From positions 56,070 to 120,069 of the forward strand of contig JALVQA010000004.1 of the NCBI GenBank assembly GCA_027031495.1: DNA of 64,000 nt, given 5' to 3'. The position numbers and the translations under genes were made by a program. Of this stretch, positions 2,804-29,323 are shown piece after piece (position 1 is the stretch's first letter; every line of letters starts with the position of its first letter). Under the pieces are notes generated by a model. The model was given only the letters and a program-made list of their open reading frames with translations. It ran no database searches and had not been told where the DNA came from. The stretch comes from Candidatus Moraniibacteriota bacterium (GTDB lineage: Bacteria; Patescibacteriota; Minisyncoccia; Moranbacterales; GCA-2747515).

Positions 2804-5122
2804 TTACTCAAAGTCACTGTCTTTGCATTTTTCTGTCGGCACAGGCCCAACGACAATTTTTCGATCTTTTTCTTCATACCACTTCTTTACACCCTTTTCC
2901 CATGATTTGTATTGTGGATCTTTCTCTGGTTTTTGTGGTGGATCACCCATAGGATCGCTTTTATCAACATAGTGAAGAATTGAGTGTGTATCAATAAATT
3001 TACGCCTTTTTACATCAACGTCATTGTTTTCACATGCATCTGATGCAAGGCACCATGTATTATCCTTTTTCGAAATACGACACACTTTTTTCTCATGCAA
3101 TTCCGGTACTTTACCATAAAGCAATGGACGCTCACTTTTTTCCTCTTCATTTTTGCCAGCACCACCTTCATCACTGGGATCAGGAAAGTGTTCGACCAGC
3201 GTATCTTTGAGGGCCTCCTCCATAAACGCATGCCATATCGGGGCAGCAACAACCGATCCGGCGGCGCCGACTCTCATTGCACGGTTATCGTTATTACCAA
3301 CCCACACACCAGCTGCAAGTGATGGTGTATATCCCATCGTCCATGCATCACGATAACCATTTGTTGTGCCAGTTTTTGCCGCTACCGATCGTTCGTCAAA
3401 ACGCAACGGATTATTTTGCCCAAATGCCGGTGCACGGTATTTATTCTTGGATAAGATATCACTCAACAGAGCAACATATTTTTCCTCAACAACGCGTTCA
3501 CCATCTCTGTCTCTAAATTCTTCCAGAACATTACCATCTTTGTCTTCAATACGCATAATACTTGTAAGATCCTTTCGTACACCACCGTTGGCAAGCGTTG
3601 CATATGCGTGTGTGTGATGAAGAAGCTGCACCTCACCACCGCCAAGCACCAACGAAAGGCCGTACCGCTTCGGTTCATCAAGACCTGTTAGACCAAGTTC
3701 TTTTCCCAGTTCTATAACCTCGTCAACACCAACAAGGTAAAGTGCCTTTACAGCCGGAATGTTAAGCGACATGCCAAGTGCCTTTTTAATTTTCACAGGG
3801 CCGCGAAATGTACCGTCATAATTCTGCGGCTCATATGCCTTATCACCACCATCAAACTTTGTCTTCACATCATAAAGAACAGTGTCCGGCACATATCCAC
3901 GACGAAACATTCCCAGAAAAACATATGGCTTAAATGATGAGCCCGGCTGACGGAAACGCAAGGCTACATTAACTTGACCATCAATATCCTTGTCAAAAAA
4001 ATCAGCTGATCCAACCATTGCAAGAAGTTGCCCTGTTTTTGGGTCTATCGCCACCAGTGCGGCGTTTTTCGCATTGTATCTCTTTCTGTTACGCTCAGCA
4101 CCATCGCGCACCACGCGCTCCGCCAGTTGCTGCAGATCCCAATCTAGCGTTGTAATGACACGCAAACCCATTTCCTTAACTTCATCCAATTTATACTGCC
4201 TTTCAAGATATTCGCGAATATACATCACAAAATGTGGCGCTTTGATCTTCTCCCTGTTTGGCACAACTTTTGCAAGAGTGTCAATTTTTTTTGCCTCATC
4301 CGCCTTTTCTTGTGTTATATAACCAAGTCGCGCCATCTGATCCAATGCATGTGCCTGTCGTTTGCGAAGACGCTCCAAGCGCTCCGGCCGTGTCCCGTAC
4401 GGTGAGTAGAATGATGGCTGTTGTGGTAGTGATGCAAGAAGCGCCGCCTCATCAAGCGTAAGATCTTTTGCGTGTTTGCCAAAAAATGTTCTCGCTGCTG
4501 CCTCAATGCCATACGCATTTGAACCATATGGAATAACATTCAGATAAAGCTCCAAGATCTCATCTTTTGTAAACTTCCGCTCCAACTCTAGCGAAAGAAT
4601 AATTTCTTTTAGCTTTCGCTCATATGAACGTTCACTTGTCAAAAGCGTATTCTTTATAAGTTGTTGCGTGATTGTAGAGCCACCACTACTTCGCCCAAAA
4701 TAGTGTGGAAATATCTGTGAGAGTGCCGCACGTATAATAGATTTTACTTTAATGCCGTGATGTTCATAAAAATCCTGATCTTCTAGCGCAATAGTCGCAT
4801 AACGTATAACCGTTGGCATTTCGTCAAAGTCTATAATTGTCCGCCGTTCTTCACCATAGATGTCATAAAGCAAAACCTTACCCGTACGATCATAAATTTT
4901 TGTTGACTCAGCAATTTCACGTGTACGCAACTGATCTGCTGGTGGCAAATCTTTTGCATAATACCAGAAAACACCGGCAGCGCTCAATATACCAACCGCA
5001 CCGAAGGACAACACACCAAAAAGCGCCCATTTTGCCATACGTTGCCCAAGCGTTTTTTTCTTTCTTTTGTTGCGCGACGCGCGTTGCACTCGTCGTCGCG
5101 TTACTACTTGTCGTGTACCCAT
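2804..5122 (-). CDS. Class A penicillin-binding protein (bifunctional transglycosylase/transpeptidase, PBP1A-like) with Lys/Glu-rich C-terminal tail
   Basis: There is an N-terminal TM segment, GT51 motifs (EDQDFYEHHG, GGSTITQQLIKN) and transpeptidase motifs SSFKP, SLN and KTGTT. About 150 aa of charged low-complexity sequence sits at the C-terminus. Confidence 0.9.
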   Translation of the reverse strand: MGTRQVVTRRRVQRASRNKRKKKTLGQRMAKWALFGVLSFGAVGILSAAGVFWYYAKDLPPADQLRTREIAESTKIYDRTGKVLLYDIYGEERRTIIDFDEMPTVIRYATIALEDQDFYEHHGIKVKSIIRAALSQIFPHYFGRSSGGSTITQQLIKNTLLTSERSYERKLKEIILSLELERKFTKDEILELYLNVIPYGSNAYGIEAAARTFFGKHAKDLTLDEAALLASLPQQPSFYSPYGTRPERLERLRKRQAHALDQMARLGYITQEKADEAKKIDTLAKVVPNREKIKAPHFVMYIREYLERQYKLDEVKEMGLRVITTLDWDLQQLAERVVRDGAERNRKRYNAKNAALVAIDPKTGQLLAMVGSADFFDKDIDGQVNVALRFRQPGSSFKPYVFLGMFRRGYVPDTVLYDVKTKFDGGDKAYEPQNYDGTFRGPVKIKKALGMSLNIPAVKALYLVGVDEVIELGKELGLTGLDEPKRYGLSLVLGGGEVQLLHHTHAYATLANGGVRKDLTSIMRIEDKDGNVLEEFRDRDGERVVEEKYVALLSDILSKNKYRAPAFGQNNPLRFDERSVAAKTGTTNGYRDAWTMGYTPSLAAGVWVGNNDNRAMRVGAAGSVVAAPIWHAFMEEALKDTLVEHFPDPSDEGGAGKNEEEKSERPLLYGKVPELHEKKVCRISKKDNTWCLASDACENNDVDVKRRKFIDTHSILHYVDKSDPMGDPPQKPEKDPQYKSWEKGVKKWYEEKDRKIVVGPVPTEKCKDSDFE

Positions 5123-5232
5123 ACAAAAAGTCTTATACCATACCAGTATACCGCAGAATATACAAAGTGACTATCAAATGCAAATTTTCGTGAATGAAAA
5201 ACAGCCCAAAAATTTCCTAATGAAAATAGACG

Positions 5233-6225
5233 TTAATCAAAAAGCATGTTGATGATTTCCGCCGATACATTGCGCGACACGCCTTCATATGGCTCATGAT
5301 GCATGCTTAACATTGGCGAATCATTTAGTTCTATTACCGTATAACCAACATCTTGAGGATTTTTTGTAATATCAGGTGTAAGAAAATCAATTCCAGCATA
5401 AGGAAGACCCGGTATCGCACGAATAATTTTTGTTGCCAAATCGCAAATGGCCGGATGCACCTTATCTGTGTAGTCAATGCTATCGCCACCAGTTGAGATA
5501 TTTGAGTTTTGGCGCAAAAAAATACGCTGACCTTTTGACGGAATACTATCCAATGTTAGAGATTTTGCTGCAAGAATTTTCAATATCTCATCGTCAACAA
5601 TAATGCGCACAATGGCCTTTTCGTGACCATCTCCACGACGTGGATCGCTGTTTTTCTCGTCAATAAGTTCACGAATTGTTGATACACCATCACCAATGAC
5701 ATTAGCCGGTACTCTATGAATAACGCCCAACGTTTTATCACGCGTTGCCAAAATGCGATACTCTTTGCCGACAGATTGCTCTTCTATTAAAAATGATGTG
5801 CCTTTTGTAGAAAATTTTTCTATGCAAGATCGTACTTCTTCATCCGTGCAAATATTGAGAAAAACATCCGTTCCCCAAGTACCTCCCGTCGGCTTGATAA
5901 CAAGCGGTTTTGGTAGCGTTTTACTATAAGCGATCGCCTCTTTAACCTCATCTTTGCAAAATGCCTGCCCGCGCGGTACACGAATACCACTTTTTTGCAA
6001 AAACTGTTTTGCAATATCCTTGTGTTTACAAATAAAATATGCATTGTAACTTAGTGACGGTAGTCTCTGCCCAATGATTGTCGCCACACGACCTTCATGC
6101 TCAATAATCAGGTGACTCCGCTTTGACTGTGGAAACATCTTACGCACAGCATAGCCGCGTCTTTGTGCCTCACGCGCAAGGAAATAATTACTTAAGTGAT
6201 TAAAATCGGACCTCGTAAAGTTCAT
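5233..6225 (-). CDS. ATP-grasp ligase, cyanophycin-synthetase-like ATP-grasp domain only (no Mur-ligase domain)
   Basis: VIGDGVSTIRELIDEKNSDPRRGDGHEKAIVRI and ...SNISTGGDSIDYTDKVHP...GLPYAGIDFL resemble the N-terminal ATP-grasp half of CphA. It is the last gene of a three-gene minus-strand cassette. Confidence 0.65.
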   Translation of the reverse strand: MNFTRSDFNHLSNYFLAREAQRRGYAVRKMFPQSKRSHLIIEHEGRVATIIGQRLPSLSYNAYFICKHKDIAKQFLQKSGIRVPRGQAFCKDEVKEAIAYSKTLPKPLVIKPTGGTWGTDVFLNICTDEEVRSCIEKFSTKGTSFLIEEQSVGKEYRILATRDKTLGVIHRVPANVIGDGVSTIRELIDEKNSDPRRGDGHEKAIVRIIVDDEILKILAAKSLTLDSIPSKGQRIFLRQNSNISTGGDSIDYTDKVHPAICDLATKIIRAIPGLPYAGIDFLTPDITKNPQDVGYTVIELNDSPMLSMHHEPYEGVSRNVSAEIINMLFD

Positions 6226-6258
6226 ATTTCGATATATTTAAGCTCAAGTTAAAGAATA

Positions 6259-7671
6259 CTACTTACTCACATCTACCAAAAATTTGCCAAGGTTGCGCTT
6301 GCCGATAATTGCAGGATACTGCAAATGCGAGCGATCCACAATGTTGACGCGCGCCGGAACGCGTACACCGTCCATAATAAAATACAGCTTCACAATTGGG
6401 CGAATTGTCACGCCACTGGATGACCACACAACAGAAACATCAACCAACCCCTCAATGGCAGAACCGTACTCCTTCATAAATACGCGCTCAGCAACAGCGC
6501 CATCACCTTTTTTTTCTATAGAAAATGCACTTAGATTAATTTTGTCAAATGCGTCAAGTGTCGATCCAAAACCAAGCTCGCGCGCAAGCTTACGGTCAAT
6601 AGACGTGGAATATGCGCCCGTGTCAATTTTTGCCTTCACTGTTACGCGCTTGTTGTCTTTACCGATAAACGTTACTTCTTCTACCGAGCCGATGACACGC
6701 TTTCCCGATGTTTGCTCAAGCACTTCCTCGATTTCACCACCAAAAAGATCTTTACCGACACGAACACCGCGTGCGACGCTCTTGATTTTAAGACCAGCAA
6801 CACGATCAAGACGCTCCTTGAGACCTGCCATATTCGCTACTTGAATAGATAGACCGGGACGTGCATTGAGTTCCAAAAATACCGGACCGCGGTCACGGTC
6901 AATAACGACATCGGCACCGAGAAAACCAAGCTTGCTCGCTTCCTGCGCCTTTACTGCCATTGTAAGGATGTCATCCCAATACGGAATTTTGATACCTGAT
7001 AGTGGCATGTGCGTATCCGGTGTACGTTCTATAATTTTTCGCTTTCCCTGCACAGCTGTCGTTGTTGTGCCTGTCGCCATGTCAATGCCAACACCAATAC
7101 CACCGAGTTGCAAATTTGCCTTGCCGCCTGATTTTTTTGTTGGCAAACGCAACATTGCCATAACAGGCACCTTGTTATACACAATGATGCGCACATCGGG
7201 AATACCGCGATAAGCATAAGGGCGAAAAAGTTTGAGAAGTGTTAGACGCTCCTCAAAAAAAGCAATATCTGATACACCGGAAAGTGAAAACATCCCCTCA
7301 ATAATGTTATGTACGTGTGTGTAAATATCGTGTGCCGTTACAACAGAGCCATCTGCTTTAACCCACGCATCTTTCATACCTTTCTTGCGCCCAAAGAGAA
7401 CGATAATACCGGCGCCACCAAAACCGCGATTCGGCTTAACAACAAAAGAATCCGGCAATTGCGACCAATCAAAGTTTTCTAGTTCTTCACGTGTACCAAT
7501 CTTCGCAATAAGTTCCGGCACAGCAACACCAGCTTTTTTGAGCACATTCTTACTCAAGATCTTATCATCAGAGATAGCACGTGCATTTTTAAGATTGAGC
7601 GGACGCACATAGTGAAGGTTTCGCGCATTCATGCCCAAAATCTTCTGTGATTTTCTCAACAGCGTAAACAT
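6259..7671 (-). CDS. RimK-like ATP-grasp ligase (alpha-L-glutamate-ligase-like) fused to a C-terminal retropepsin-like aspartic peptidase domain
   Basis: The N-terminal GMNARNLHYVRPLN...VVKPNRGFGGAGI..ELNARPGL is a RimK-related ATP-grasp. The C-terminal ~140 aa carry a KIDTGAYSTSID (DTGA) retropepsin-type motif, as in the RimK-associated peptidase family. Confidence 0.7.
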   Translation of the reverse strand: MFTLLRKSQKILGMNARNLHYVRPLNLKNARAISDDKILSKNVLKKAGVAVPELIAKIGTREELENFDWSQLPDSFVVKPNRGFGGAGIIVLFGRKKGMKDAWVKADGSVVTAHDIYTHVHNIIEGMFSLSGVSDIAFFEERLTLLKLFRPYAYRGIPDVRIIVYNKVPVMAMLRLPTKKSGGKANLQLGGIGVGIDMATGTTTTAVQGKRKIIERTPDTHMPLSGIKIPYWDDILTMAVKAQEASKLGFLGADVVIDRDRGPVFLELNARPGLSIQVANMAGLKERLDRVAGLKIKSVARGVRVGKDLFGGEIEEVLEQTSGKRVIGSVEEVTFIGKDNKRVTVKAKIDTGAYSTSIDRKLARELGFGSTLDAFDKINLSAFSIEKKGDGAVAERVFMKEYGSAIEGLVDVSVVWSSSGVTIRPIVKLYFIMDGVRVPARVNIVDRSHLQYPAIIGKRNLGKFLVDVSK

Positions 7672-7677
7672 GATTTC

Positions 7678-8370
7678 TTACTTTATATGTGCTAAAACAT
7701 CGCGGAAACGTATATATTCCGTCACACGTAGACCAGTCCAACGCCCCAAAAGAATGTTTGCGGGAATTGTCAAAAGGACTGCAAAAGGATGTAGAAAAAC
7801 AAAATTTTGAATCGTTTGCGATGAAAGAAGCGCATACCCACAAAGTGCTACGACAAGTGTTTCAACCGCAAGAAAAAGTGCGGTTTTTGTTCCTTTTTCA
7901 ATTTGCACAGCCACAAATTTCTCAGCGATGACAACAAGCACAATAAGCGGAAACACATACATAGTCGCAAAACCGGTGCGTTGCATGTACGCACCGAGAA
8001 TCAAAATACCAAGAACAGTAAATGATAAAAATGTCATTGTAATGGCCACACGTGGCAAATACAGTAAGCGGAAATGTTTCAAAATAACGCGCATCCCCAT
8101 GCCAATAGCAATAACGGCAATGTAAATCGCAATACCATAACGTAAATCATAAAACATGCTACCGATGTTGAAACTCTCATAGCGTGCATCAGAAATCATA
8201 AAAAAAACCAACGCAATGATGGATGGTGTATAGATGCCAAAGGCCTTTATACCAATCACTTGACGAAAGAATGCAACAAGCGTTGCGACAAGCGGAAACA
8301 TAAGAAGAATAAGAACGGTTTGATCTGGAATCCCCAAATTGACAACAATACTATTAATCCATGGACTCAT
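7678..8370 (-). CDS. Polytopic membrane protein (about 6-7 TM), first gene of the ATP-grasp cassette
   Basis: It has several long hydrophobic segments. It sits 6 bp upstream of the RimK-like gene on the same strand. No catalytic motif was recognised. Confidence 0.55.
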   Translation of the reverse strand: MSPWINSIVVNLGIPDQTVLILLMFPLVATLVAFFRQVIGIKAFGIYTPSIIALVFFMISDARYESFNIGSMFYDLRYGIAIYIAVIAIGMGMRVILKHFRLLYLPRVAITMTFLSFTVLGILILGAYMQRTGFATMYVFPLIVLVVIAEKFVAVQIEKGTKTALFLAVETLVVALCGYALLSSQTIQNFVFLHPFAVLLTIPANILLGRWTGLRVTEYIRFRDVLAHIK

Positions 8371-8426: not shown

Positions 8427-8921
8427 CTATGCTACGCGATGCATAACACGACTTGCACTATGACAAAACGCAACCGCAAGCGCATCAGCCGCATCATCCG
8501 GTCGCGGCACAGCATCAAGGTGAAAAATCGTCTTTACCATCGCCTGCACCTGCGCTTTTTCAGCACGTCCATTGCCGGCAACAGCTTGTTTGACTTGTAG
8601 TGGCGTATACTCACCGATAGCAAGATGTGCACGCTCGGCACACAACAAAAGCACACCGCGTGCCTGTGCAACAGTAATAATTGTCTTTTGATTTTTAAAA
8701 TAAAATAATTGCTCGATACCCATCTCTGCAGGTGCGTACGTTGCAACAATCTGTTCAAAATCCCGTGCAATCTCTCCGAGGCGATCAGCATCACTCTTTG
8801 TGCTCTCAGTTTCAATACACCCGTGTGCAACGTGCTTAACACGACCACCACCGTAATCATCAATTATCGCCCACCCAACAATTGCCGTACCAGGATCAAT
8901 GCCCAAAATCCGCACACTCAT
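8427..8921 (-). CDS. ruvC: Holliday junction resolvase RuvC
   Basis: The N-terminal ILGIDPGTAIVGWAII and the length fit RuvC. It sits directly downstream of yebC, the classic arrangement. Confidence 0.9.
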   Translation of the reverse strand: MSVRILGIDPGTAIVGWAIIDDYGGGRVKHVAHGCIETESTKSDADRLGEIARDFEQIVATYAPAEMGIEQLFYFKNQKTIITVAQARGVLLLCAERAHLAIGEYTPLQVKQAVAGNGRAEKAQVQAMVKTIFHLDAVPRPDDAADALAVAFCHSASRVMHRVA

Positions 8922-9640
8922 TATGATGCAACGTTACTATAGATCTCTTGCACATCGTCACACCCCTCTATTGCAGAGTAAAGTGCGTCATATGACACCT
9001 TCTCATCATCACGCAATGTGATAGTCTGCGTCGGTATATATACGATACTCACGTCATCTACGGCAACGCCGTGTTCCTCAAGATGCGCGCGCACTGCGTG
9101 CACATCCTTGACAGCTGTCGTAATAACAATGGCATCATCACCTTTTCTCTCGACATCTTCCGCACCGGCATCAATTGCCAAAAGCTCTACCGCATCAGGA
9201 TCATCAGTTCGCACAACGATGCGTCCAACATGTTTAAATTGAAACGCAACACCACCACCGGAAACAAACTTGCCACCATTTTTCTTGAGTGTTGTTTTAA
9301 CTTCTGTGAGCGCCCGATTCGTATTGTCGGTTGCACATACGATAATAAATGCGCTACCACTCGGACCCATTGCTTCATACACAACTTCCTCAATACGTGT
9401 CCCGCCATCAATTTCGCCTGTTCCACGCTTAATTGCACGCTCTATATTATCCTTTGGCATATTAACTGATCGCGCTTTCTCAATCGCCATCTTAAGCGCC
9501 GCATTCATTTCCGGATCGCCACCGCCTTGTTGCGCAGCAAGTGTAATATTTTTTGCAACTACCGTGAAAATCTTTGCACGTTTTGCATCGGTTGCCGCCT
9601 TCTTGTGTTTAATACTTGACCACTTATTATGTCCTGACAT
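8921..9640 (-). CDS. yebC: YebC/PmpR family DNA-binding regulator
   Basis: The N-terminal MSGHNKWSSIKHKKA...AK.ITLAAQQGGGDPEMNAALKMAIEKA is the YebC signature. Confidence 0.9.
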   Translation of the reverse strand: MSGHNKWSSIKHKKAATDAKRAKIFTVVAKNITLAAQQGGGDPEMNAALKMAIEKARSVNMPKDNIERAIKRGTGEIDGGTRIEEVVYEAMGPSGSAFIIVCATDNTNRALTEVKTTLKKNGGKFVSGGGVAFQFKHVGRIVVRTDDPDAVELLAIDAGAEDVERKGDDAIVITTAVKDVHAVRAHLEEHGVAVDDVSIVYIPTQTITLRDDEKVSYDALYSAIEGCDDVQEIYSNVAS

Positions 9641-10219: not shown

Positions 10220-10645
10220 TTAATTTTCTTCCTCTTGATCCCCTGGCACATGCCAGTAGATCTCAAGTCTGTCTTCCTCCTCCCCAAGACCACCTTCGCA
10301 GAGTCCTTCTACCCTTTTTGTCCTTAAGTAGATTTTACGACCTGTATTTTTCACCACAAAAACTCCTTCTTTGCAGTCATTTTGACTATAAGCTCTTGGT
10401 GGATATGTATCCACCTGCGCTCCATCTTCTTCTCTTATTATTACAATTGACGGATCCAGCCTATGATACCAGAAGTAATCTCCTGGCTCCAAAAAAAAGC
10501 TTCGGAGAGCATCTTTTTTTTCGTTTAGCCTCTTCCTGAGGCCTCTTTCGTATTCATGCTTCCATGCTATTATATTGTTTAACTCTCTGTTTCTAACAGA
10601 GAGTACAACAATAATAACAACAACAAGAAGAAGAATAATGCTCAT
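10220..10645 (-). CDS. Hypothetical protein with N-terminal membrane anchor
   Basis: It has a hydrophobic N-terminus (IILLLVVVIIVVL), a terminator downstream and no recognisable domain. Confidence 0.45.
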   Translation of the reverse strand: MSIILLLVVVIIVVLSVRNRELNNIIAWKHEYERGLRKRLNEKKDALRSFFLEPGDYFWYHRLDPSIVIIREEDGAQVDTYPPRAYSQNDCKEGVFVVKNTGRKIYLRTKRVEGLCEGGLGEEEDRLEIYWHVPGDQEEEN

Positions 10646-11470: not shown

Positions 11471-12474
11471 ATGGACAGGGATATCTCACACACATATTAC
11501 ACCATCTCATCGTACAGTGATAGTAGCACTGTTGCGTGCCGGTGTTTCCCAAAAGGATATTGCCGCACAACTCGGCAAAACGCCGAGTGCCATCTCTCAA
11601 AAAAAGATTAAGCGCAACAATGATGCTGACGGTGTCTACAGAAAGCGTACCGCTCAGGAAAGAACGACACGTCGCAGAGTTACTGTCAATCAGCGCTTTC
11701 GTGAACTAGCTCATGATCCGTGGCTCCGTGCATATATGGAACGAAAGCTCAAGATGCGCTGGTCACCGGAGCAGATAAGTGGACGATTGCGACTGCAGTA
11801 TGGCAGTACTCTGGGAAAAGATAGTATATATGCTACGTCTACACTCACCACACGGACTTGGTACAATATCTGCGGTGCAAGAAAGGATCTTTTCGCAGGC
11901 GTTGCGGTACGCGCATCCGTGAAAAAGTGCGTGAACAAGCCAAAATCAGGCGCATTGACACGCAACCAACCATTGTTGAGGCCCGAGAGAGAATCGGTGG
12001 CTGTGAGGGTGATACAATCATTGGAAAATATATGACAAAGCGACTCGTCACAAATGTTGATCGCAAGAGCGGCTACGGCATGATTGATAAGTTGTCAGTT
12101 ATCACGAGAGAAACGATGTTTGCTACGCTGGAGAAGCGCTTTGGTACGGATTGCTAGAAAGAGAAAGTATACGTATACGTACAAAAACGGTGCGGAATTG
12201 GGCAAGGAAGATGCGTGGCTGGAAGAAAAAATCAAGATGGATATCTACAGAGCGTACCCCTACCACTCCTAGGAGCGTGTGTGTAACGAGCTTAGTACGG
12301 GAGTTCTTTCCAAAAGGTACAGACTTTGCTGGAATGTCGGAGAACGAGGTGCGGCGAATAGAGTGCCTGCTCAACAACCGACCTCGCAAGAGACTTGGTT
12401 ACAGAACACCACGGGAAGTCTTTTTTGAGAAAAAAATGTGCATTTTTTTGATTAAGATTTGGGAGAGAATTTAA
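11471..12474 (+). mobile_element. IS30-family transposase gene, degraded (at least 2 frameshifts)
   Basis: Three consecutive ORFs in different frames carry IS30 hallmarks. These are an HTH region (LLRAGVSQKDIAAQLGKTPSAISQKKIKRNN, WSPEQISGRL), a GGCEGDTIIG..LVTNVDRKSGY segment corresponding to GHWEGD, and a C-terminal FFPKGTDFAGMSENEVRRIECLLNNRPRKRLGYRTPREVF. Confidence 0.75.
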
Positions 12475-17018: not shown

Positions 17019-19693
17019 TCATCTGCGTTGCATTTTTAGCGCGTCTTTCACAGACTGCTCATTTAAACCTGTAAGAGAAAGCGCAATGACAGCCGGATGA
17101 ATAGAAACGTCTGCTAAGTGTGTACGATCAATGACATACATTTCATCATACGTATTCACTTTTTCACTTCGCATATACACCGCAATCATTTGCACCGTAT
17201 GCGCAAAAAGTGCATTAAACCACGCCATGGCACGTCTATACCATGTATCGTGCACAGATGTTGCGCGTGGCGCTGGCGCATCTTTGCTGTACATATTGCT
17301 TTGTTTGGTATGTGTGCCAAATTCATTTTCCCACGCGCGCGCACTGATAGCACGCGCACGTTCATCACCACTACCGCCGCTATCTACCTGCGTTTGTTTT
17401 ACTTCTTTTTCTGCAACATGCGGCACATCCCAGACCCATCCACCACCGTCAGCATGCGCGCGTTTGCGATATACCGCATCATCTGGAACTGTTTTATATC
17501 CACTCGGCGGCGTGTATTTTTTACTGTATGCAATTGTTCCATCTGGCCTACGCACCGCGACATAGCCACCTCTATTCGGTAGCGTGATCGCACTGTATTT
17601 TGTATAAATCTTTTTCTCTTTACCTGGTGCAAGAACAATTTTTTTGTGCAACGGATGATTAACACTTTTATTTTTTGTGCTTCCCGTTACAATGCTCCAT
17701 CCACGCAAATTAACACTCTTTTTACTTTTATTTTTAATAACGACGTACTCCGTGCCAGTATCTTTGCCACGTGGATTTGGTGCGATGGCGACAATTTTGA
17801 TTTTTCTGTGTGGATATCGGTGCACATCTACAGAGAATTGCCGCATCACCTCTTCGCTTGCATCTTTGACGCGTACTTGTACCGTATAGTGTCCTTGTGC
17901 ATCATATGTGTGCGTTGTACTAGCTTTATAACTTCTGTGTCCATCACCAAAATCCCATCTGTACGAAAGTGCTTCCCCATCGAGATCATGTGCACGTACT
18001 GCAAAGTGTGCTGTGACATCTTTATAGATCTCGTCATCATACTCCAGTACATCAATAATCGGCAACATATTAAAGATATTGCGTGCACCGGGCGTGAGCG
18101 TTTTACTCCATCTGTAGACACCGCTTCTTTCATAATTCAGTGATACGTCCTCAGGTGCACTGCGTGTGTAGTGCAGGTGATCAACAACAACATACTCATC
18201 ACCGCGTGACGCCCACAGCGTAACACTATCACCATTGTTATTAAGCGCAAAACCAAAAGTCGGACGTCGTAACAGCAAAAATCCCTGCGGTGGCACTGCT
18301 ACGGAAGCAGGAAACGTATATCGTCCCGTTATGCTTTTATCACCAAGCACCCACCCGTGAAGATTTACACTTTTTGTATTCGGATTGTACAGTTCAATAT
18401 ATTCATTTATACTTTCGTCACCAGACGGGTTTGGTAAAATCTCATTGATGCGAATCTTCTCGCCCGCATAAGGCACTACGCACGGTTCTGTGCGAAAAAG
18501 TTGATGCGTACACTTCTTTGCTAGAGATGTATCACTGCGCGTGTGTGCAACATATGTATCGTTAGAAGGATTTTGACGATTTTTCCGTAAAAGGCAGCAT
18601 CCTTGTGGCCATGACCCCACGCTACAATATCACGCAGAACACGTTGATTATCAAGGAGAATAATTGCATTATTATCAGCAAATGACTTTTTGCGCACAAA
18701 ATCTGCCTTCCCTCTGTATGCACCATCCGCACGCGCAATTACAATCATGCCATGTGCCGGCAGGCGCACAGGTCCATCACCACACTCTTTTGTACCAAAC
18801 GTGCATATATTCTCACTTGTGCCGAATAGTGTGTCATCACATGTTTTAATTATCTTTGTCGCCGTTCGTCGTCGCACGTGCCATCCGGTAATGTCAACAG
18901 TGTGATCTGTCGTATTTTTAATGATAAGCGCATCATCTTTGTCGTGTATGGCAACAGCTGCAATAATGATATCGGACGATGATTTTTTGTAAAGACGCTT
19001 TTTGTAAGCATTGAGATCACATGTCTCTTTATTACTATCTTTGCCGTCATCATCACGCTTGTGCACCTCTTTTTCCGCTGCATCTGCACTTTCGTTTTTA
19101 TCACCTTTAAGCACACTTTGTGTGCTTGCAAAGTTATTTTCTTTCCCACTTTCTGACGAATCCTGACTGTATTTATTATTCTCCTTTGTGTTATTTTTTA
19201 TGTCGCCACCCTCTTGCCGCTTGTCATCTTCCTCCGCAGGTGTGTTATTGTTATCGCGTACAGTGTGTCCTTGCGTAGTATTATCATCAGAAGCATCACT
19301 CTCCCCATTTTCTTGCGTATGCTGTACGTTACCGCCCTCACTATTCCCGTCTGCTGTATCTACACTTTTTTCTCGCTGTACCTCTTCTTCTCTATTTACA
19401 TTATTGTCATCACCTTCATCTGCACTAGCGTCTATGTTGTCGCTTTCACTGTTATTTTCTGTAGCACTCCTCCTGCTGTATGCATTATCCCCTTCACTTT
19501 CGCTACTCACATTCTCCATAACGACACTTTCATATCCTTGATGTGTATCTATGTCTTCTTCTGCGTAAATTATACCGCCACTGTAAAATATCGCCCATGA
19601 AAAAATACTCACGCCCCATGCCGTGAGTATTCTAAAAAGAAAAAACATACGTCTCTCAACGCGCTCACGCCACCCCATCTTCTTTACCCTCAT
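17019..19693 (-). CDS. Large surface protein with three lamin-tail domains (LTD) and a PKD domain, interrupted by a frameshift near 18585-18600 in an A5 run
   Basis: There is an N-terminal signal/TM segment and an acidic low-complexity region. The first LTD is HDKDDALIIKNTTDHTVDITGW; after the frameshift come a second LTD (INEILPNPSGDESINEYIELYNPNTKSVNLHGW), a PKD domain (YRWDFGDGHRSYKASTTHTYDAQGHYTVQV) and a third LTD (PNPRGKDTGTEYVVIKNKSKKSVNLRGW). The two ORFs overlap in different frames at 18521-18620, and the start was chosen at an internal Met to avoid the upstream gene. Confidence 0.65.
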
Positions 19694-20288
19694 TTCTATC
19701 ATTACGGTTATCATCAGGAAGATTTTCCTCCGATTCATTATATGTCTTCCTCTGCATTTCCACAAGCATTGCTTTTACTGCATAAGGATCCGGTACGCTA
19801 CGAAAGAGGAAGCGTGTATGCTCTGCAGCGGTCTGCACTTCAACATCACCATAATTTAAAAGTGTCGGAATAATGCCACGTACATTACTTGTAATATCTT
19901 GAATTGTGTGAAAATACAATTCGCTTACCTGACGCGAAAAGAGACCTTTTTGTTCAATATTAACAACACGACGATTTGTTACAATCCATACATCAAGCCA
20001 ATAATCAATCCATGTTATAAAACCATAAAACCACAAGAAAACCACAAGAAAACTATCAACAAGGAGAATGAGTGGCATAATATGCTCAACACCAAGCGAT
20101 GATTCAAATAACCCAACAAAAAGTGTTCCCGCAAGCATTGTAAGAGCAACAAACGTTATAAGCACGTAATGCATCACAATATCAAACCAGTGTCGATGAA
20201 TTACTGAAAGAATAATCTCATCGTCGCGTTGCCCACGAAAGTGATAATGTGAAAAATCTTCTATACTATGTCCTACTTTCTTCGTCAT
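19665..20288 (-). CDS. Bacterial PH-domain (bPH_2/YdbT-like) membrane protein
   Basis: Two TM helices are followed by a PH-like region (WIVTNRRVVNIEQKGLFSRQVSELYFHTIQDI), the typical DUF304 architecture. Confidence 0.55.
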   Translation of the reverse strand: MTKKVGHSIEDFSHYHFRGQRDDEIILSVIHRHWFDIVMHYVLITFVALTMLAGTLFVGLFESSLGVEHIMPLILLVDSFLVVFLWFYGFITWIDYWLDVWIVTNRRVVNIEQKGLFSRQVSELYFHTIQDITSNVRGIIPTLLNYGDVEVQTAAEHTRFLFRSVPDPYAVKAMLVEMQRKTYNESEENLPDDNRNDRNEGKEDGVA

Positions 20289-20543: not shown

Positions 20544-21605
20544 TTACATACCTAGGGCGCTGCGCATTTTTTCATAACGCGCCGGGATATTTATATTAAG
20601 ATGTTTAAATGCTGCCTCAAGGGCCACGCGACCACGCGGTGTACGCATAATAAAACCATGTTGAATGAGATACGGCTCATACACTTCTTCTATAGTATAC
20701 ACTTCCTCGCCAAGTGATGCAGCAAGTGTCTTTACACCAACAGGACCACCATGAAACACGGTAATGATTTTCTCAAGAAGTTGACGATCCATTGCTTCAA
20801 GGCCACTTTCATCAATGTCCAATAATTTCAATGCATCACACACAACTGTATGCGTCACCTCACTAAGATCGTGCGCTTGTGCATAGTCACGTACACGTCG
20901 CACGAGACGATTTGCAACACGTGGTGTCTGACGTGAACGGTGTGCAATCTCCTGCGCAGCATCATCGTGAATCACAATATCAAGAAGACGTGCACTACGC
21001 AAAACAATTTGCTTGATATCGTTTGGTGTATAAAACTCCAGTCGGTATGTGCTTCCAAAGCGATTGCGCAAAGGATTTGACAGTGCACCAATTTGTGTCG
21101 TTGCACCAATGAGGGTAAATTTTGGCAAGTCAAGTTGAAGCGTACGTGCACTTGGTCCCTTTCCAACGATAATATCAATCACACCATCTTCCATTGCCGG
21201 ATACAATACTTCCTCCACTGTCTTACGCAAGCGATGAATCTCATCAATAAAGAGTATATCGCCATCAGAAAGATTTGTCAGAATAGATCCAAGATCGCCA
21301 ACGCGTTCTATTGCTGGTCCACTTGTTACAGTAATACCAACACCCATTTCTTTCGCTATAATATGCGAAAGCGTTGTTTTACCAAGTCCAGCACTCCCGT
21401 AAAACAAGATATGATCAATTGGTTCGCCACGCTTGCGTGCCGCGTTGATCACAATTGACAAATTACGCTTTATCGCATCTTGACCAACATATTCAGTAAG
21501 TGTTTCTGGACGCAGGGCGCGATCAAATATTTTCTCATCACGCAAAAGAACAGTACTGATATCATGTTTGTATTCTTCCTTTTTTTGCGCTGTTTTAATA
21601 ACCAT
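20544..21605 (-). CDS. ruvB: Holliday junction branch-migration helicase RuvB
   Basis: LRPETLTEYVGQD...LFYGSAGLGKTTLSHIIAKEMG...DILFIDEIHRL is the AAA+ RuvB signature. Confidence 0.95.
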   Translation of the reverse strand: MVIKTAQKKEEYKHDISTVLLRDEKIFDRALRPETLTEYVGQDAIKRNLSIVINAARKRGEPIDHILFYGSAGLGKTTLSHIIAKEMGVGITVTSGPAIERVGDLGSILTNLSDGDILFIDEIHRLRKTVEEVLYPAMEDGVIDIIVGKGPSARTLQLDLPKFTLIGATTQIGALSNPLRNRFGSTYRLEFYTPNDIKQIVLRSARLLDIVIHDDAAQEIAHRSRQTPRVANRLVRRVRDYAQAHDLSEVTHTVVCDALKLLDIDESGLEAMDRQLLEKIITVFHGGPVGVKTLAASLGEEVYTIEEVYEPYLIQHGFIMRTPRGRVALEAAFKHLNINIPARYEKMRSALGM

Positions 21606-22360: not shown

Positions 22361-23500
22361 CTATTTGCGAATTGGCATAACAAGATAGAGAAATCGCTCA
22401 TCATCATCACTTTTTGCAACCGGTGTAATAACAACCGGTGATGCCGCACCCGAAAATGCAATACGTACTTTTTCACTACCGCAACGACTTATGCCATCAA
22501 GTACATAACGCGTATTGAGATAGATTTCTTGTACTTCGCCATGCGCTTCAACCTGCAGTGTTGTCACATTTTCTCCACGATCCTGCGACATTGCACTAAT
22601 TACACATGTGCTTTCATCAGGATTTATCGTCACTTTCATATCACTCGTTGTATTATTTGCAAAGGCATCAGCAAGTCGCAGTACGCGCTCACATTCCGCA
22701 CGCGACACAATGATGTGCGTTGCCGTCTCTTGCGGAATAATCTGCTGATAGTCAGGATATGTTCCAGAGATAAGACGCGAAACAATTGTCACGCCATCAA
22801 CTTCAAAAAAGATCTGACCATCACTTATATGCATCATTATCATTTTTGTCGCACTATCAGAAAGAATATATAAAATTTCAGCAATAGCACTCGCCGGGAC
22901 AATAATGGAATCAATGTCTTTTTGTATAGCTGCAGCTTCAATCGGTGCCACACTTTCACTAAGACGGAAACCATCTGTTGCAGCTACACGCATAGTATTA
23001 TCAGTAAAAACTATATTCACACCGGTTAATTCAGGGCGCGCTTCCGTTTTTGCAACACTTATCATCACACGTGACAACACAGAGCGAAATACATCTGACT
23101 GCACTGTTACTTCACCATAGATATTTTCCTTTTGCGGTATCGGTGGAAAATCAACTGGATTATACCCCTTTATTACTGCACGTGACGATCCACTTTCTAC
23201 AGCAATGTCAGTGTCAGATACCTGAGACACAGTTACCTGTGCACCATTGTCAAGTGATGCAATAAAACTATTGAGAAGTTGTGGTGGAATAACAACACTG
23301 CCAACTTCTTCAATTTTGCCACTAATTTCAATACGCACACCCATATCAAGGTTTGTAGCAGCACACGCAAGTATATTATTTTCTGTTGAGATAATGACAT
23401 TTTGTATAATCGGCAACAGCGATTGCTTTGCAAGAGCTTTTGTACTGTAGCGTAGTGCCCGATCAAGGTGTTCTTTTGTGCATGTAAATCGTAAAGCCAT
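22361..23500 (-). CDS. dnaN: DNA polymerase III beta sliding clamp
   Basis: MALRFTCTKEHLDRALRYSTKALAKQSLLPIIQNVII is DnaN-like. The start was moved to the internal Met at 23500 because the track ORF begins in the AT-rich upstream region. The gene follows dnaA. Confidence 0.9.
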   Translation of the reverse strand: MALRFTCTKEHLDRALRYSTKALAKQSLLPIIQNVIISTENNILACAATNLDMGVRIEISGKIEEVGSVVIPPQLLNSFIASLDNGAQVTVSQVSDTDIAVESGSSRAVIKGYNPVDFPPIPQKENIYGEVTVQSDVFRSVLSRVMISVAKTEARPELTGVNIVFTDNTMRVAATDGFRLSESVAPIEAAAIQKDIDSIIVPASAIAEILYILSDSATKMIMMHISDGQIFFEVDGVTIVSRLISGTYPDYQQIIPQETATHIIVSRAECERVLRLADAFANNTTSDMKVTINPDESTCVISAMSQDRGENVTTLQVEAHGEVQEIYLNTRYVLDGISRCGSEKVRIAFSGAASPVVITPVAKSDDDERFLYLVMPIRK

Positions 23501-23732
23501 AATAGTTATTACAATTAAATCAAATATATTTAGTTTATTATTATTAGCGCTGTGGAAAGTGTGGAAAAGTGCGATAAATGTAGTTATTATGCACACACTT
23601 TTCTGTGTATTATTAATGAATAAATGCATGTTTTTGTGTGCAAGACTGTAGATGTGGGATATCCACTTTTATGTGCACAGAGTATAACACAGTTTTATAC
23701 ACATGCACATGCGTACTTATGCACAATTTTAT
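23501..23732. promoter_or_regulatory. dnaA-dnaN intergenic DnaA-box cluster (oriC part)
   Basis: The AT-rich spacer carries TGTGGAAAG (23551), TGTGGAAAA (23560) and an overlapping inverted TGTGGGATA/TATCCAC (23653-23666). Confidence 0.5.
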
Positions 23733-25175
23733 TCACAGAGTGTGTAATTTTCGTTTCAATGTGTCAATGGTATCCTTTAGTGCCGCATCAGCAATAAGTT
23801 CTTTTTCAATTTTACGACACGCATGTATCACTGTTGTGTGATCACGTCCACCGCAGTGTGCGCCAATTTCAGGGTATGAATATGTAAGTTCCTCACGCAA
23901 AAGAAACATGGCAATTTGACGCGGGCGGACAATTGTTTTTTTGCGCACCTTTCCGATAATGTCGTCAGGTGTAATATTGAAATGTTGTGCGACAATATCA
24001 ATAACAGAAGAAGCGCTTCGTGCCGGACGACGATTCACGATTGTTGGTGCAAGAATTTCCTCCACAACAGCGCGCGAAGGGATTTTTTGCTGAAAAGTGC
24101 AGATAGCGACAACTTTATTGAGTGCGCCTTCCAGTTCACGAATATTACTTGCCACATTACGTGCAATGTAGCGTGCCGCATCTTCCGGAAGAATAATATC
24201 TTTTTCATCTGCTTTTTTTTGAAGAATTGCCACACGCGTTTCAAAGTCTGGTTGTGAGATATCAGCAATCATGCCACCTTCAAAGCGGGAACGCAAGCGA
24301 TCTTCCAGTGTTGCAATTGCATGCGGTGGTCTATCACTTGAGATGATAATCTGTTTATTTTTTTGGTAGAGAAAGTTGAAAATGTGAAAAAATTCATCTT
24401 GCGTTTTTTCTTTACCGGCAAGAAACTGAACGTCATCAATAATGAGGAGATCAATTGTTTGATAAAACTTTTTAAAATCTGATATTGTATTGTTATGTAT
24501 AGAATCTATAAGCTCGCTAGTAAAACGCTCTGATGATGTGTAGAGAACGCGCTTTGTTGGATCAGCACTAACAACAGCATTACCAATCGATTGAAGGATG
24601 TGTGTTTTACCAAGACCAACATCACCATAGATAAATAGCGGGTTGTATACTGTGCCAAGCGATTCACTTACAGTGCGACATGCGGCATGAGCGAGTTCAT
24701 TATGTTGCCCAACGACAAAATTACTGAACGTATAGCGAGGGTTGAGACATGTATTATAGGGCGGTGTTGTTTTTGCTGTTGGTTTTTGCTGAATATTTTT
24801 AGCCTGTTGAATTGGTTGTTTTTGCTGCTGTATACTTCGCTGTGGCGCTTTTTTGAGAATTGTGCTGATTGTTGAATTTCCTGTTCGTTTCTGCGTGACA
24901 GCGTCGATAGATTGTGGCGCACGTTGGGGTTGTGGCGAAAGAGTGCAATGGATACGTGTAATACTTTTGTCATGATTGCGCAGCGCTTGTAAAACAATGT
25001 CAGAGCATTTTTTCTCAATCCACTCCTTCGCAAATCCATTCGGTGTAGTGATAGTGGCGCACCCATCGTCGATTGATTGAATTGATGTGTTTTTAAACCA
25101 TGTAATAAAATTTGCACGAGAAATGGAGAGTTCTATTTCACCGAGTGCCGCCGCCCATAATTGTTGAAAATCCAT
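23733..25175 (-). CDS. dnaA: Chromosomal replication initiator DnaA
   Basis: It has the Walker A NPLFIYGDVGLGKTHIL, an AAA+ core, and a C-terminal DnaA-box-binding domain (RKKTIVRPRQIAMFLLREELTYSYPEIG). Confidence 0.95.
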   Translation of the reverse strand: MDFQQLWAAALGEIELSISRANFITWFKNTSIQSIDDGCATITTPNGFAKEWIEKKCSDIVLQALRNHDKSITRIHCTLSPQPQRAPQSIDAVTQKRTGNSTISTILKKAPQRSIQQQKQPIQQAKNIQQKPTAKTTPPYNTCLNPRYTFSNFVVGQHNELAHAACRTVSESLGTVYNPLFIYGDVGLGKTHILQSIGNAVVSADPTKRVLYTSSERFTSELIDSIHNNTISDFKKFYQTIDLLIIDDVQFLAGKEKTQDEFFHIFNFLYQKNKQIIISSDRPPHAIATLEDRLRSRFEGGMIADISQPDFETRVAILQKKADEKDIILPEDAARYIARNVASNIRELEGALNKVVAICTFQQKIPSRAVVEEILAPTIVNRRPARSASSVIDIVAQHFNITPDDIIGKVRKKTIVRPRQIAMFLLREELTYSYPEIGAHCGGRDHTTVIHACRKIEKELIADAALKDTIDTLKRKLHTL

Positions 25176-25404
25176 AGGAAGTAACTCTTTATTTTACGTA
25201 TAGATGATGACATGTTTAGTATAACACGGATAAGCGTTATACATGTGGATAAGTTGATAAATCTGTGGATAAGTTGTGTAAAATGTGTATATTTTGCACT
25301 TTACTCAGGATAAATAGTAAAAAAAGATGCAAGTTATCCACAGAAATAAATAAAAACACTGTGGAAAACAGTGTTTTTATAATTATTGCAATGATATATT
25401 TTAT
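25176..25404. promoter_or_regulatory. DnaA-box cluster upstream of dnaA (oriC / dnaA promoter region)
   Basis: In 229 bp of AT-rich DNA there are TGTGGATAA at 25244 and 25264, TTATCCACA at 25334 and TGTGGAAAA at 25370. Confidence 0.6.
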
Positions 25405-27162
25405 TTACTCAAGTGACTTTTCAACAACTTCTTCTGTGTAGATTTTCAGAACATCACCTTTCTTTATGCGCGTGTGCGTTGTGCAAACAAGACCACACTC
25501 CTTATTTGTTTCAACTTCTTGCACGGCAACTTTGCCTTGCTGTAAACTTTCTATAATACCGTCGCCAATATTTGCGTCATCGCGCGTAATCGTTACATGT
25601 GCGTCCTTTACAACGCGTCCTTTCTTTACGATGCCACCGATAATCATCTTTTCTTTCTCTGTGCGAAATATATCAAGAACTTCGAGTTCGCCTATATCTG
25701 TGCGGATGACTTCTTCCGGAATATGCTCAAGAAGTGTTTTTTTGATATCATCAACCAGTTCGTAGATGATAGAAAAGGTTTTAATAGTAACACCCCTATC
25801 TTCTGCAAGACGTTTTGCGACTGCAGTGACGGTAACATTGAAGCCGTAAATAATAGCATTAGTACTTTCTGCAAGTTTTACATCGGACTCTGTAATATCA
25901 CCAACATGAAGTGCAATATAGTGAATGGCAATTTTCTTTTGTGGAATTGTTGCACAAATTTGTTCTATAGCTTCAAGTGTTCCTTGCACGTCAGCTTTAA
26001 TGATAATCGGTAAATTTTTCTCATTATCATCTACGTTCTTGAGTGATGCGTCTTCCGCAATCTGTTGTGCTTTAAGTCGCGCTATTTGTTTACCACTCAT
26101 TACCTGAATGATGTCATTAACTTGTGGTGCATCGTTGAGGCCGTAAATAGTAACTGCTGCGCTCGGAGGAGCTTTCTCTATACTACGTCCTGTGAAGTCT
26201 TCAATGCGTCGTATGCGTCCATATGTTTTACCTGCACGTATATCCTGACCAACTTTTAGAACGCCGGTCTTTACAACGGCGGTTGCAACAGCACCTTTTT
26301 TCGAATCTACATGTGATTCAAGTACAACGGCAAGGCCGTCACGTGTATCATCTGCGCGAAAATCTTCAACTTCGGCGAGTAAGAGGATATTATCCAAAAG
26401 TTCGCCAATACCAATATTGTTTTTTGCACTAATCTCATTCGCAAGCACCTTGCCGCCCCACTCCTCAATAAGAATGCCATGTTCCGCGAGTTCTTGTTTA
26501 ACTTTTGCGACGTTTGCGCCCGGTGCGTCAATTTTGTTAATAGCGACGATCGTTGGGATGTTTTTTTCTTTGATGTAGTCAATAACCTCCTTTGTTTGCG
26601 GCTTGACGCCGTCGTCAGCAGCGACAATAAGAATGGCAATGTCGGCAATAGATGCGCCACGTTCACGCATGGCGGCAAATGCTGCATGTCCCGGTGTGTC
26701 AATAAACGTAATTGTTTTGCCACGCTTTTTAACTTGGTATGCACTGATGTGCTGCGTAATACCGCCAGCTTCCGTTTCAGCGACAGACGATTTGCGAATA
26801 GTATCAAGAAGCGTTGTTTTGCCATGATCAACGTGACCAAGAATTGTAACAATTGGTGGGCGTGGGCGCAAATTTTTGCCACTTTCACGCTCTTTTTCGC
26901 AAATTGTAAGTAAATCTTCAAGTGTAATAATGTCATCATCACTGACAGAAATGTCCGGTTTTACCGTAAAGCCGAGATCCTCCGCGATGATGCTAGCGGT
27001 TTCATAATCAATCTCCTCATTAATCGTGGCCATAATGCCGTTTTTCATGAGTTCTTCGATAACGCGTGTCACCGGCATAGCAAGAATTTCAGCAAATCGC
27101 TTAACGGTGATAACGGCTGGTAGCGCAACTGTATTGCGTTCTTCTTTTTTAACTTCTTTCAT
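25405..27162 (-). CDS. infB: Translation initiation factor IF-2
   Basis: The G-domain motif [27 protein letters not shown] is present with the usual C-terminal domains. The protein is 585 aa. Confidence 0.95.
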
Positions 27163-29165: not shown

Positions 29166-29250
29166 GCCGTGGTGCTGGAATTGGTAGACAGGCCAGGTTG
29201 AGGGCCTGGTGTCCGCTTAGGGCGTGAGGGTTCAAGTCCCTCCCACGGCA
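29166..29250 (+). tRNA. tRNA-Leu (anticodon GAG), long variable arm
   Basis: The acceptor is GCCGTGG/CCACGGC, the anticodon stem CCAGG/CCTGG with loop TTGAGGG, and the T-arm GAGGG-TTCAAGT-CCCTC. Confidence 0.85.
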
Positions 29251-29323
29251 CACAAAGTGTTTTTGCGCTTTTTCCGTTATGGTGTATACTGAGGTTGTTG
29301 CGCAATTTTACAGTTTTGTTTAG

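Follow-up and report, generated by a model that had tools for sequence, protein, structure and literature searches.

Closest Described Systems

The rlo gene neighbourhood, reportedly first predicted by Iyer et al. in 2009, is the described system with which we compare a cassette of three genes from a 64-kb stretch of DNA of a Candidatus Moraniibacteriota bacterium (contig JALVQA010000004.1). This whole stretch is called the window in the following, and all gene coordinates are given on its numbering. The cassette encodes a seven-transmembrane (7TM) protein, a fusion of an ATP-grasp ligase with a retropepsin-like peptidase and a second, stand-alone ATP-grasp ligase, and on balance we favour its classification as a streamlined variant of the Rlo system in Moranbacteria of the candidate phyla radiation (CPR), with a proposed mechanism that works on acidic chains.

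The rloABC operon of Pseudomonas aeruginosa was named in 2025, and the Rlo system of this species was connected, by genetics and in this species only, with hypo-osmotic tolerance, biofilm formation, cell shape and antibiotic tolerance (Lormand et al., mBio, PMC12239564). Defects of the rloA1-3 triple mutant are suppressed by deleting rloB or rloC (PMC12239564), which implies that RloB and RloC make something that the peptidase must remove. RloA and RimB are endopeptidases specific for poly-alpha-Glu (PMC12239564, PMC11957791); RimB also acts on RimK, which it binds and stimulates, and a hybrid protein of the two is active (PMC11957791). The preliminary description of the cassette had held that it is not a named pathway, which is wrong for its core, since rloABC consists of these same three components, a 7TM protein, a TIGR02291-type ligase and a retropepsin (PMC12239564).

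The likeness to Rlo lies in a PF14402 7TM protein, a TIGR02291/PF14397 ATP-grasp ligase and a PF05618 retropepsin with the DTG motif and the poly-Glu Lys/Arg residues, all encoded together. In contrast to the Pseudomonas operon, ligase and peptidase of the window form one polypeptide, RloC-linker-RloA, giving the order B-(C::A) instead of A-B-C; the peptidase is predicted to be cytoplasmic, whereas Pseudomonas RloA is secreted; and the 7TM protein comes without the periplasmic inactive transglutaminase domain, in whose place other CPR lineages have PKD domains. The CPR version further carries one or more extra ATP-grasp ligases in a hypervariable slot, and its host is a reduced-genome CPR bacterium and not a proteobacterium. 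As two Rlo features are absent, namely the transglutaminase domain of RloB and the secretion of RloA, we speak of a variant and not of an orthologous rloABC operon.

RimK-RimB and RimBK of Pseudomonas fluorescens and Desulfotalea psychrophila (PMC11957791) likewise combine an ATP-grasp ligase with a cytoplasmic poly-alpha-glutamate endopeptidase, and RimBK also shares the fusion of both into one protein. The peptidase is C-terminal in the window fusion but N-terminal in RimBK, and the window ligase differs from RimK-RimB in being of the RloC type and in having an obligate 7TM partner. The literature that we searched held, within the limits of that search, no paper on an RloC::RloA fusion, a bare 7TM partner or a hypervariable ligase slot, and PADLOC returned no defence-system match. 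Database names of these proteins are generic ("alpha-L-glutamate ligase-like protein", "ATP-dependent zinc protease", "7TM domain-containing protein"), while NCBIfam already has RloA and RloB models.

Layout of the Locus

All three open reading frames (ORFs) of the ORF listing lie on the minus strand, at 8370..7678 (230 residues), 7671..6259 (470 residues) and 6225..5233 (330 residues), with spacers of 6 bp between the 7TM and fusion genes (7672-7677) and of 33 bp between the fusion gene and the gene of the 330-residue protein (6226-6258). These sizes and spacers agree with those of the preliminary description, which had reported three tightly packed co-directional genes without stating the strand. 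The motifs that it quoted, LGMNARNLHY, DTGA and GDGVSTIRELIDEKNSDPRRGDGHEKAIVRI, are present as well, and Pfam and NCBIfam profile searches returned its domain assignments: PF14402 for the first protein, PF14397/TIGR02291 and PF05618 for the second and TIGR02068 for the third, each of them well clear of a chance match. A class A penicillin-binding protein (PBP) of 772 residues (5122..2804, minus strand) is encoded downstream of the third gene after a gap of 110 bp. The closest homologues carry the labels Candidatus Moranbacteria or Moraniibacteriota, of the Parcubacteria group of the CPR. The features are as follows.

8427..9640, minus strand: yebC (9640..8921) and ruvC (8921..8427), overlapping, upstream conserved flank (Pfam)
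7678..8370, minus strand: 7TM protein, 230 residues, predicted equivalent of the C-terminal 7TM half of RloB
6742..7671, minus strand: RloC-type ATP-grasp domain, residues 1-310 of the 470-residue fusion (PF14397, TIGR02291)
7609..7638, minus strand: N-terminal motif LGMNARNLHY of the ligase domain, re-read from the DNA
6703..6741, minus strand: acidic linker GGEIEEVLEQTSG, 13 residues, ligase-to-peptidase junction, re-read from the DNA
6262..6702, minus strand: predicted retropepsin-like (RloA/RimB-type) aspartic peptidase domain, residues 324-470 of the fusion (PF05618, RloA models)
5233..6225, minus strand: predicted stand-alone ATP-grasp ligase of the CphA-G/GshF type, 330 residues, subfamily G1 (TIGR02068, GshAB)
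5123..6258, minus strand: variable "ligase slot", from the fusion stop codon to the PBP start codon (blastn boundaries)
2804..5122, minus strand: class A PBP with transglycosylase and transpeptidase, downstream conserved flank (PF00912, PF00905)

A terminator-like hairpin of 15 pairs (2758-2725) lies 3' of the PBP gene, and no terminator was detected between the cassette genes and the PBP gene. Because a promoter scan stayed at the level of shuffled sequence, with 18 sites against 17.9 and thus no excess, the operon structure is deduced only from the gene spacing and from the hairpin after the PBP gene. The PBP gene is possibly co-transcribed with the cassette; its membership in the system is not claimed.

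The genes dnaA (25175..23733) and dnaN (23629..22361) coincide with a minimum of the cumulative GC skew near 24 kb (about 24000-26000), which makes it probable that the replication origin lies there and that the cassette, about 15 kb away, is origin-proximal. The gene ruvB is found at 21605..20544.

The 7TM Protein

The 230-residue protein matches PF14402 (7TM_transglut) with 1.6e-26 and 93.8 bits against a cutoff of 25, and it matches the NCBIfam RloB model, which has 508 positions, at positions 311-506 only. In comparison with the classical rloABC reference operon, for which we used that of a Legionella adelaidensis plasmid, BLASTP aligned it with residues 309-507 of RloB (26% identity, 1e-17). 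The N-terminal periplasmic inactive transglutaminase domain of RloB is absent from it, and all 120 homologues among the matches listed have a length of 204-242 residues with PF14402 alone. The AlphaFold2 (AF2) model, with a predicted local distance difference test (pLDDT) value of 89, agrees with seven transmembrane helices. Residues invariant among 82 homologues lie mostly in the loops and the C-terminal tail, which the positive-inside rule would place on the cytoplasmic side. Judged from its sequence, this protein is the membrane half of RloB without the transglutaminase domain.

The Ligase-Peptidase Fusion

The ligase domain of the fusion reached 230.5 bits (2.9e-68) with PF14397 (ATPgrasp_ST; cutoff 31.4). 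BLASTP aligned residues 3-310 with the entire 314-residue RloC of Legionella (40% identity, 7e-73) and residues 324-470 with Legionella RloA (29% identity, 1e-6). As the homology to RloC stops just before the linker and that to RloA begins just after it, the fusion can be described as RloC, a 13-residue linker and a signal-less RloA. Its AF2 model (pLDDT 82) displays two well-folded domains and a flexible linker, with low pLDDT at residues 315-322.

None of the ATP-grasp residues K79, E267 and N269 varies among 91 homologues. In fold, the ligase domain comes nearest to the solved structures of ArgX/LysX, RimK and PsnB, enzymes that all act on peptide or protein carboxylates. Residues M14, N15, R17 and N18 of the motif LGMNARNLHY, which also occurs in Legionella RloC, are invariant in the 91 sequences despite a pLDDT below 50 (disordered) for this region of the AF2 model, and the motif may serve for docking. 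Of the linker, G311, G312, E319 and G323 are invariant, and E313, E315, E316 and S322 are conserved in at least 90% of the 91 homologues. The acidic linker was also considered as an autoprocessing site; the requirement of RloA for eight or more Glu in a row makes this unlikely.

For the peptidase domain, PF05618, now named "RimB-like", gave 3.9e-9 and 37 bits (cutoff 27), and the NCBIfam models RloA1-3 match it too. When a profile built from the fusion family was compared with solved structures, the RloA crystal structures 9g58 and 9g59 came up at about 1e-6. The DTGA motif was re-read from the DNA at nucleotides 6613-6624. The catalytic Asp of RloA is D48, and modelling and mutagenesis showed that the basic residues K46, R114 and R137 coordinate poly-glutamate (Lormand et al., PMC12239564). 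In the alignment with 9g58, these correspond to K348 (K46), D350 (D48), R424 (R114) and R447 (R137) of the fusion, all four being invariant in the 91 homologues, so that by alignment neither the catalytic Asp nor any of the three conserved Lys/Arg residues for poly-Glu binding has been lost from the retropepsin domain. The peptidase domain, at the C-terminus of a cytoplasmic ligase, has neither a hydrophobic segment nor a signal peptide; it is therefore predicted to be cytoplasmic, unlike the secreted RloA.

The Accessory Ligase

The 330-residue protein matches positions 204-471 of the CphA model TIGR02068 with 2.6e-80, the GshAB model with 2.5e-71, there only in the C-terminal ATP-grasp region (positions 433-753), and the model of the N-acetylglutaminylglutamine amide (NAGGN) synthetase with 7e-40. 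Against structures it gave 5.8e-57 with the CphA1 G domain (PDB 7lgm) and 6e-49 with GshF (3ln7). It aligns with the G domain throughout, including the G-omega insert, and its residues K111, R157, R171, N242, D280, E299 and N301 correspond to K261, R309, R323, N394, D431, E450 and N452 of TeCphA1, whose roles are taken from PMC9427784. Among them, K111, R157, D280, E299 and N301 are the residues for ATP, Mg and the acyl-phosphate that CphA1 and GshF have in common with it, and the mapped catalytic and substrate residues show little or no variation among 81 family members. The protein may thus be described, on its aligned residues, as an ATP-grasp ligase of the CphA-G/GshF type with intact catalytic residues; with the conserved residues of the fusion, both ligases and the peptidase Asp proved intact in this alignment check. 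Such enzymes lengthen a short peptide by one amino acid at its C-terminus, whose alpha-carboxylate they activate.

"CphA-like", as the protein had been called, stands by score. In the active site, however, TeCphA1 His267, Gly456 and Arg458 are replaced by W117, M305 and S307, and W117, the P-loop aromatic, and the nucleophile-pocket motif (SPMLSMH / "PM.xMH..PY.G.SR") match GshF (3ln7) and not CphA1. Specificity for Asp, first drawn from R171 and N242, was dropped: both residues are retained in GshF, which adds Gly, so that it cannot be inferred from them. Unlike CphA1 and GshF, the protein stands alone, consisting of the G-domain region without the N and M domains of CphA1 and without the N-terminal glutamate-cysteine ligase domain of GshF. 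With neither N nor M domain, a cyanophycin-like polymer is not indicated, and a CphA M-like gene was found nowhere in the window. The family of this ligase is distinct and widespread in Patescibacteria, with some members fused to a retropepsin domain.

A Conserved Core and a Replaceable Slot

Relatives of the fusion protein occur in at least 577 genomes (one genome per species), and 80 of their loci were analysed. The order yebC-ruvC-7TM-fusion was found by tblastn in 78 of these loci, the other two being interrupted by contig ends, and in most of the 80 a class A PBP follows 1-6 kb downstream. A recognisable homologue of the 330-residue protein, by comparison, is present in only about 30 of the 80, mostly at about 30% identity. 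ORFs were called and clustered in the interval from the fusion gene to the PBP gene, and in 73 of the 80 loci the fusion is followed next by a same-strand ATP-grasp ligase, with a median gap of 10 bp. These slot ligases form at least nine subfamilies (G0-G8), of which G2 and G6 score above the RimK family cutoff, and G1, the type of the window, and G8 are CphA-G/GshF-like; they come in tandems of one to three, and some are fused. Further occupants of the slot are GT4 and GT2 glycosyltransferases, a YdjC-like protein, GNAT and a larger ATP-grasp protein, and genes for a MATCAP-family carboxypeptidase stand in the slots of 8 of the 80 loci. Altogether, 57 gene contents were counted among the 80 slots, the commonest being "G1 only", the arrangement of the window, with 8 loci.

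The three nearest genomes (L089, L090 and L001) have fusion proteins 75-80% identical to that of the window, and their flanking proteins are all 61-87% identical. In all of them, the blastn homology that runs from yebC breaks off at window positions 6257-6260, at the fusion stop codon, and restarts at 5123 (L089), 4975 (L001) or 4903 (L090), position 5123 being the base before the PBP start codon. What lies in between differs.

Window slot: one G1 ligase
L089 slot: two RimK-type ligases and a 517-residue protein without assigned function
L090 slot: one ATP-grasp ligase and MATCAP
L001 slot: a G0 ligase and YdjC

The ligase position after the fusion gene is a replaceable, sharply bounded slot, so that strains probably differ in what their product is composed of. 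Of the three-gene cassette as it had been described, the 7TM-fusion pair is confirmed (78/80), whereas the third gene is not a fixed member, with four slot contents in the four nearest genomes.

In three Moranbacteria loci (L010, L014 and L080), the slot holds a Mur-ligase-like gene with the CphA M domain as its best match (5e-31). In L080 this gene lies directly 3' of a CphA-G/GshF-type ligase, an arrangement resembling a "split CphA without N domain".

Other CPR Lineages and Gene Fusions

Distant homologues of the 330-residue protein (42-47% identity) in other CPR lineages again adjoin PF14402 and PF14397 proteins. One lineage of Patescibacteria (L081/L082) has yebC, ruvC, a PKD-PKD-7TM protein, an RloC-retropepsin fusion, a CphA/GshF-type ligase fused to a retropepsin and then glycosyltransferases, with no PBP nearby; a second one (L083/L084) has PBP1A at its end. 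In Woesebacteria (L085/L086), 7TM, ATPgrasp_ST, MATCAP and CphA/GshF-type ligase genes lie between uvrC and mnmA, flanks unrelated to those of Moranbacteria, again without a PBP nearby. Their retropepsin domain is degenerate, having NTG, a large deletion and no acidic linker, and the MATCAP gene adjoins it. The neighbourhood check that had been called for found the 7TM-fusion pair in 78 of the 80 loci and the CphA/GshF-type ligase beside 7TM and ATPgrasp_ST proteins in other CPR lineages.

Representatives of 50%-identity clusters yielded 2,399 relatives, 442 of them at E <= 1e-30, and in many of these clusters MATCAP is fused to the RloC-retropepsin core. A Pfam scan of ten long relatives revealed three RloC-type ligases fused to MATCAP, and many further relatives of about 790 residues share the length and the match pattern of these fusions. 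Other partners fused to RloC-type ligases are YdjC, a second ATP-grasp and a transglutaminase core, while P0313 is a CphA/GshF-type ligase fused to a retropepsin domain. Fusions with MATCAP, YdjC and a second ATP-grasp tie the slot genes functionally to the core. The functional linkage of the genes that had been suspected is therefore borne out, both by the adjacency that is conserved and by fusions seen in other lineages, and the third gene is linked to the core at the level of its family.

Tubulin-tail editing by TTL/TTLL and MATCAP, with ATP-grasp "writers" and peptidase "erasers", offers a parallel to this set of enzymes as a functional analogy only; it differs in that no MATCAP gene lies in this window and that no tubulin-like acceptor is known.

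Two observations concern transglutaminases. A 683-residue protein of Woesebacteria (L085, 155-2206) has an apparently normal transglutaminase core (PF01841) and is encoded two genes upstream of the 7TM-ligase cluster, with uvrC in between, and in P0494 an RloC-type ligase is fused directly to a transglutaminase core, so that the association of this ligase family with transglutaminases recurs outside RloB. An unannotated relative of the RloC-type ligase domain (38% identity) was also seen on a plasmid of Halobacterium sp. DL1 (CP007061.1; L091, 4001-4840), which extends the family to Archaea; this stretch adjoins transposase genes and is possibly a pseudogene or a missed gene.

Other Features of the Window

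On the plus strand at 11517-12474, three overlapping ORFs (11517..12035, 11858..12157 and 12151..12474), with an N-terminal helix-turn-helix and the C-terminal end "...NNRPRKRLGYRTPREVF", are what we take, by eye, to be pieces of one IS30-family transposase; the gene appears to be broken by frameshifts, and the whole is probably a decayed insertion sequence. A 948-residue protein (13225-16071, minus strand) combines a full FAD-dependent oxidoreductase domain (PF12831, 5e-79) with SLH and Big_13 Ig-like domains and, its hydrophobic N-terminus being read as a putative signal peptide, looks like an unusual cell-surface flavoenzyme. Two further overlapping ORFs on the minus strand (17019-19765), namely 18521..19765 (414 residues) and 17019..18620 (533 residues), contain LTD and PKD domains. 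At the matching position upstream of yebC, L090 has one LTD-PKD-LTD protein of 826 residues, which suggests that the copy of the window may be frameshifted or contain a sequencing error.

An ORF of 141 residues (10220-10645, minus strand), about 580 bp upstream of yebC, has an N-terminal hydrophobic helix and an acidic end (...GDQEEEN), and it gave no Pfam match. Five tRNA genes lie within about 620 bp (29166-29787, plus strand), with six more tRNAs elsewhere in the window.

Proposed Function and Alternatives

The general reading of the preliminary description, in which ATP-grasp amidoligases work without the ribosome, together with a dedicated peptidase and a membrane partner, holds, and synthesis and trimming of a peptide at the membrane is plausible. 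In the mechanism that we propose for the Rlo variant, the RloC domain would add acidic residues, most likely Glu, to the carboxylate of an acceptor on the cytoplasmic side of the membrane, driven by ATP. The fused peptidase, presumably a homodimer, would cut and limit or release the acidic chains, in parallel to the part of RimB for RimK, and the accessory ligase may attach a different residue to the C-terminus of a peptide, priming or capping it. The 7TM protein would dock the enzymes and carry, export or relay the product to the envelope.

Several points weigh against this proposal. With TIGR02291, the fusion scores 294.3 bits (9e-88), slightly below the equivalog cutoff of 314.2, and we know of no product, acceptor or amino-acid specificity for any RloC-type ligase of any organism. 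The assumption of poly-Glu draws on the conserved peptidase residues and, by analogy, on in vitro data from distant homologues (29% identity). Glycosyltransferases, the YdjC-like deacetylase and GNAT in other slots hint that the acceptor could be a sugar or a glycoconjugate and not a protein or free peptide. Given the secreted peptidase and the periplasmic domain of RloB in Pseudomonas, the topology here may differ fundamentally, and so may the trimming step, with a peptidase that is cytoplasmic here and periplasmic there. A recognisable transporter fold was not found for the 7TM protein, so its role in export is a guess, and no gene of the 64-kb window has an acidic C-terminal tail or a run of at least six D/E fit to be acceptor or substrate. 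For the proposal speaks that peptide ligases and C-terminal peptidases have joined the core, as neighbouring genes or as fusion partners, which argues for a peptide chain on a carboxylate and not for a product of sugar only.

One alternative is a module for the envelope or for peptidoglycan precursors acting together with the adjacent class A PBP, in which a lipid-linked or wall precursor would receive amino acids from the ligases, as a stem-peptide branch or the peptide of a wall polymer, and the 7TM protein would handle the intermediate. The slot abuts the PBP start codon without a detected terminator in between, the order yebC-ruvC-7TM-fusion-ligases-PBP1A is kept across Moranbacteria and in L083/L084, slots of other genomes contain GT4, GT2, YdjC and the Mur-ligase-like protein, and Pseudomonas rlo mutants have cell-shape and ampicillin phenotypes. 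We nevertheless consider this explanation unlikely, as L085/L086 and L081/L082 have no PBP in the vicinity of their 7TM protein, fusion and CphA/GshF-type ligase, none of the ligases belongs to the Ddl or Mur families that work on precursors of peptidoglycan, the Mur-like protein is nearest to the CphA M domain, and the poly-Glu-binding residues of the peptidase have no obvious substrate in peptidoglycan. The PBP adjacency pointed out in the preliminary description is thus kept in Moranbacteria and one other lineage and absent in Woesebacteria and another lineage of Patescibacteria; since some lineages have the system without the PBP, an envelope link stays conjectural, and the link to the PBP itself is one of conserved synteny only. 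A small peptide metabolite of the cytoplasm, such as a di- or tripeptide osmolyte or a thiol similar to the GshF product or to NAGGN, would be neither a polymer nor a protein tail and would leave the 7TM protein as a sensor or exporter. The matches of the 330-residue ligase to GshAB (2.5e-71) and the NAGGN synthetase (7e-40), its GshF-type P-loop aromatic and pocket motif and the osmotic nature of the Rlo phenotypes fit such a product, which we hold to be quite unlikely all the same: no glutamate-cysteine ligase, GNAT or amidotransferase partner is encoded in the window, a dipeptide would hardly call for a core-fused endopeptidase that depends on long acidic stretches, and in sister genomes RimK-family or other ligases take the place of the accessory ligase beside an unchanged core.

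Modification of the ribosomal protein S6, as by RimK and RimB, is brought to mind by the pairing of a cytoplasmic retropepsin with an ATP-grasp ligase, which RimK-RimB and RimBK also show, and by RimK being among the nearest solved folds. It appears very improbable for a ligase of the RloC type (TIGR02291) that always comes with a 7TM protein, a partner without a part in S6 modification; moreover, the fusion (48 bits) and the 330-residue protein (43 bits) both fall far below the cutoff of the RimK family model TIGR00768 (143.4 bits). The gene rpsF was not found in the 64-kb window. A storage polymer resembling cyanophycin has in its favour that the best PDB and NCBIfam matches of the 330-residue protein are CphA1 G domains and that three related loci carry the CphA M-domain-like Mur ligase in their slots. 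With no N domain, M domain or cyanophycinase in the window, with CphA1 His267, Gly456 and Arg458 changed in the GshF-like manner to Trp, Met and Ser, and with the gene of the 330-residue protein lacking in most sister genomes, we give this explanation hardly any credence.

Significance of the CPR Variant

In the CPR version of Rlo, the transglutaminase domain and the secretion of the peptidase appear dispensable. The cassette is kept near the origin in probably very small genomes, and at least 577 species genomes have relatives of it, which suggests an important role. As a tentative extension, which we think possible without considering it likely, the core, together with its base-precise slot, may be an "ATP-grasp assembly line" that varies from strain to strain and makes, without the ribosome, a diverse acidic peptide or glycopeptide of the CPR envelope. 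If so, the locus would correspond, on the peptide side, to an O-antigen or capsule locus and would be under diversifying selection, and the minimal form found in the window would be the simplest handle on what Rlo systems make, its two-enzyme version being a tractable start for reconstitution in vitro.

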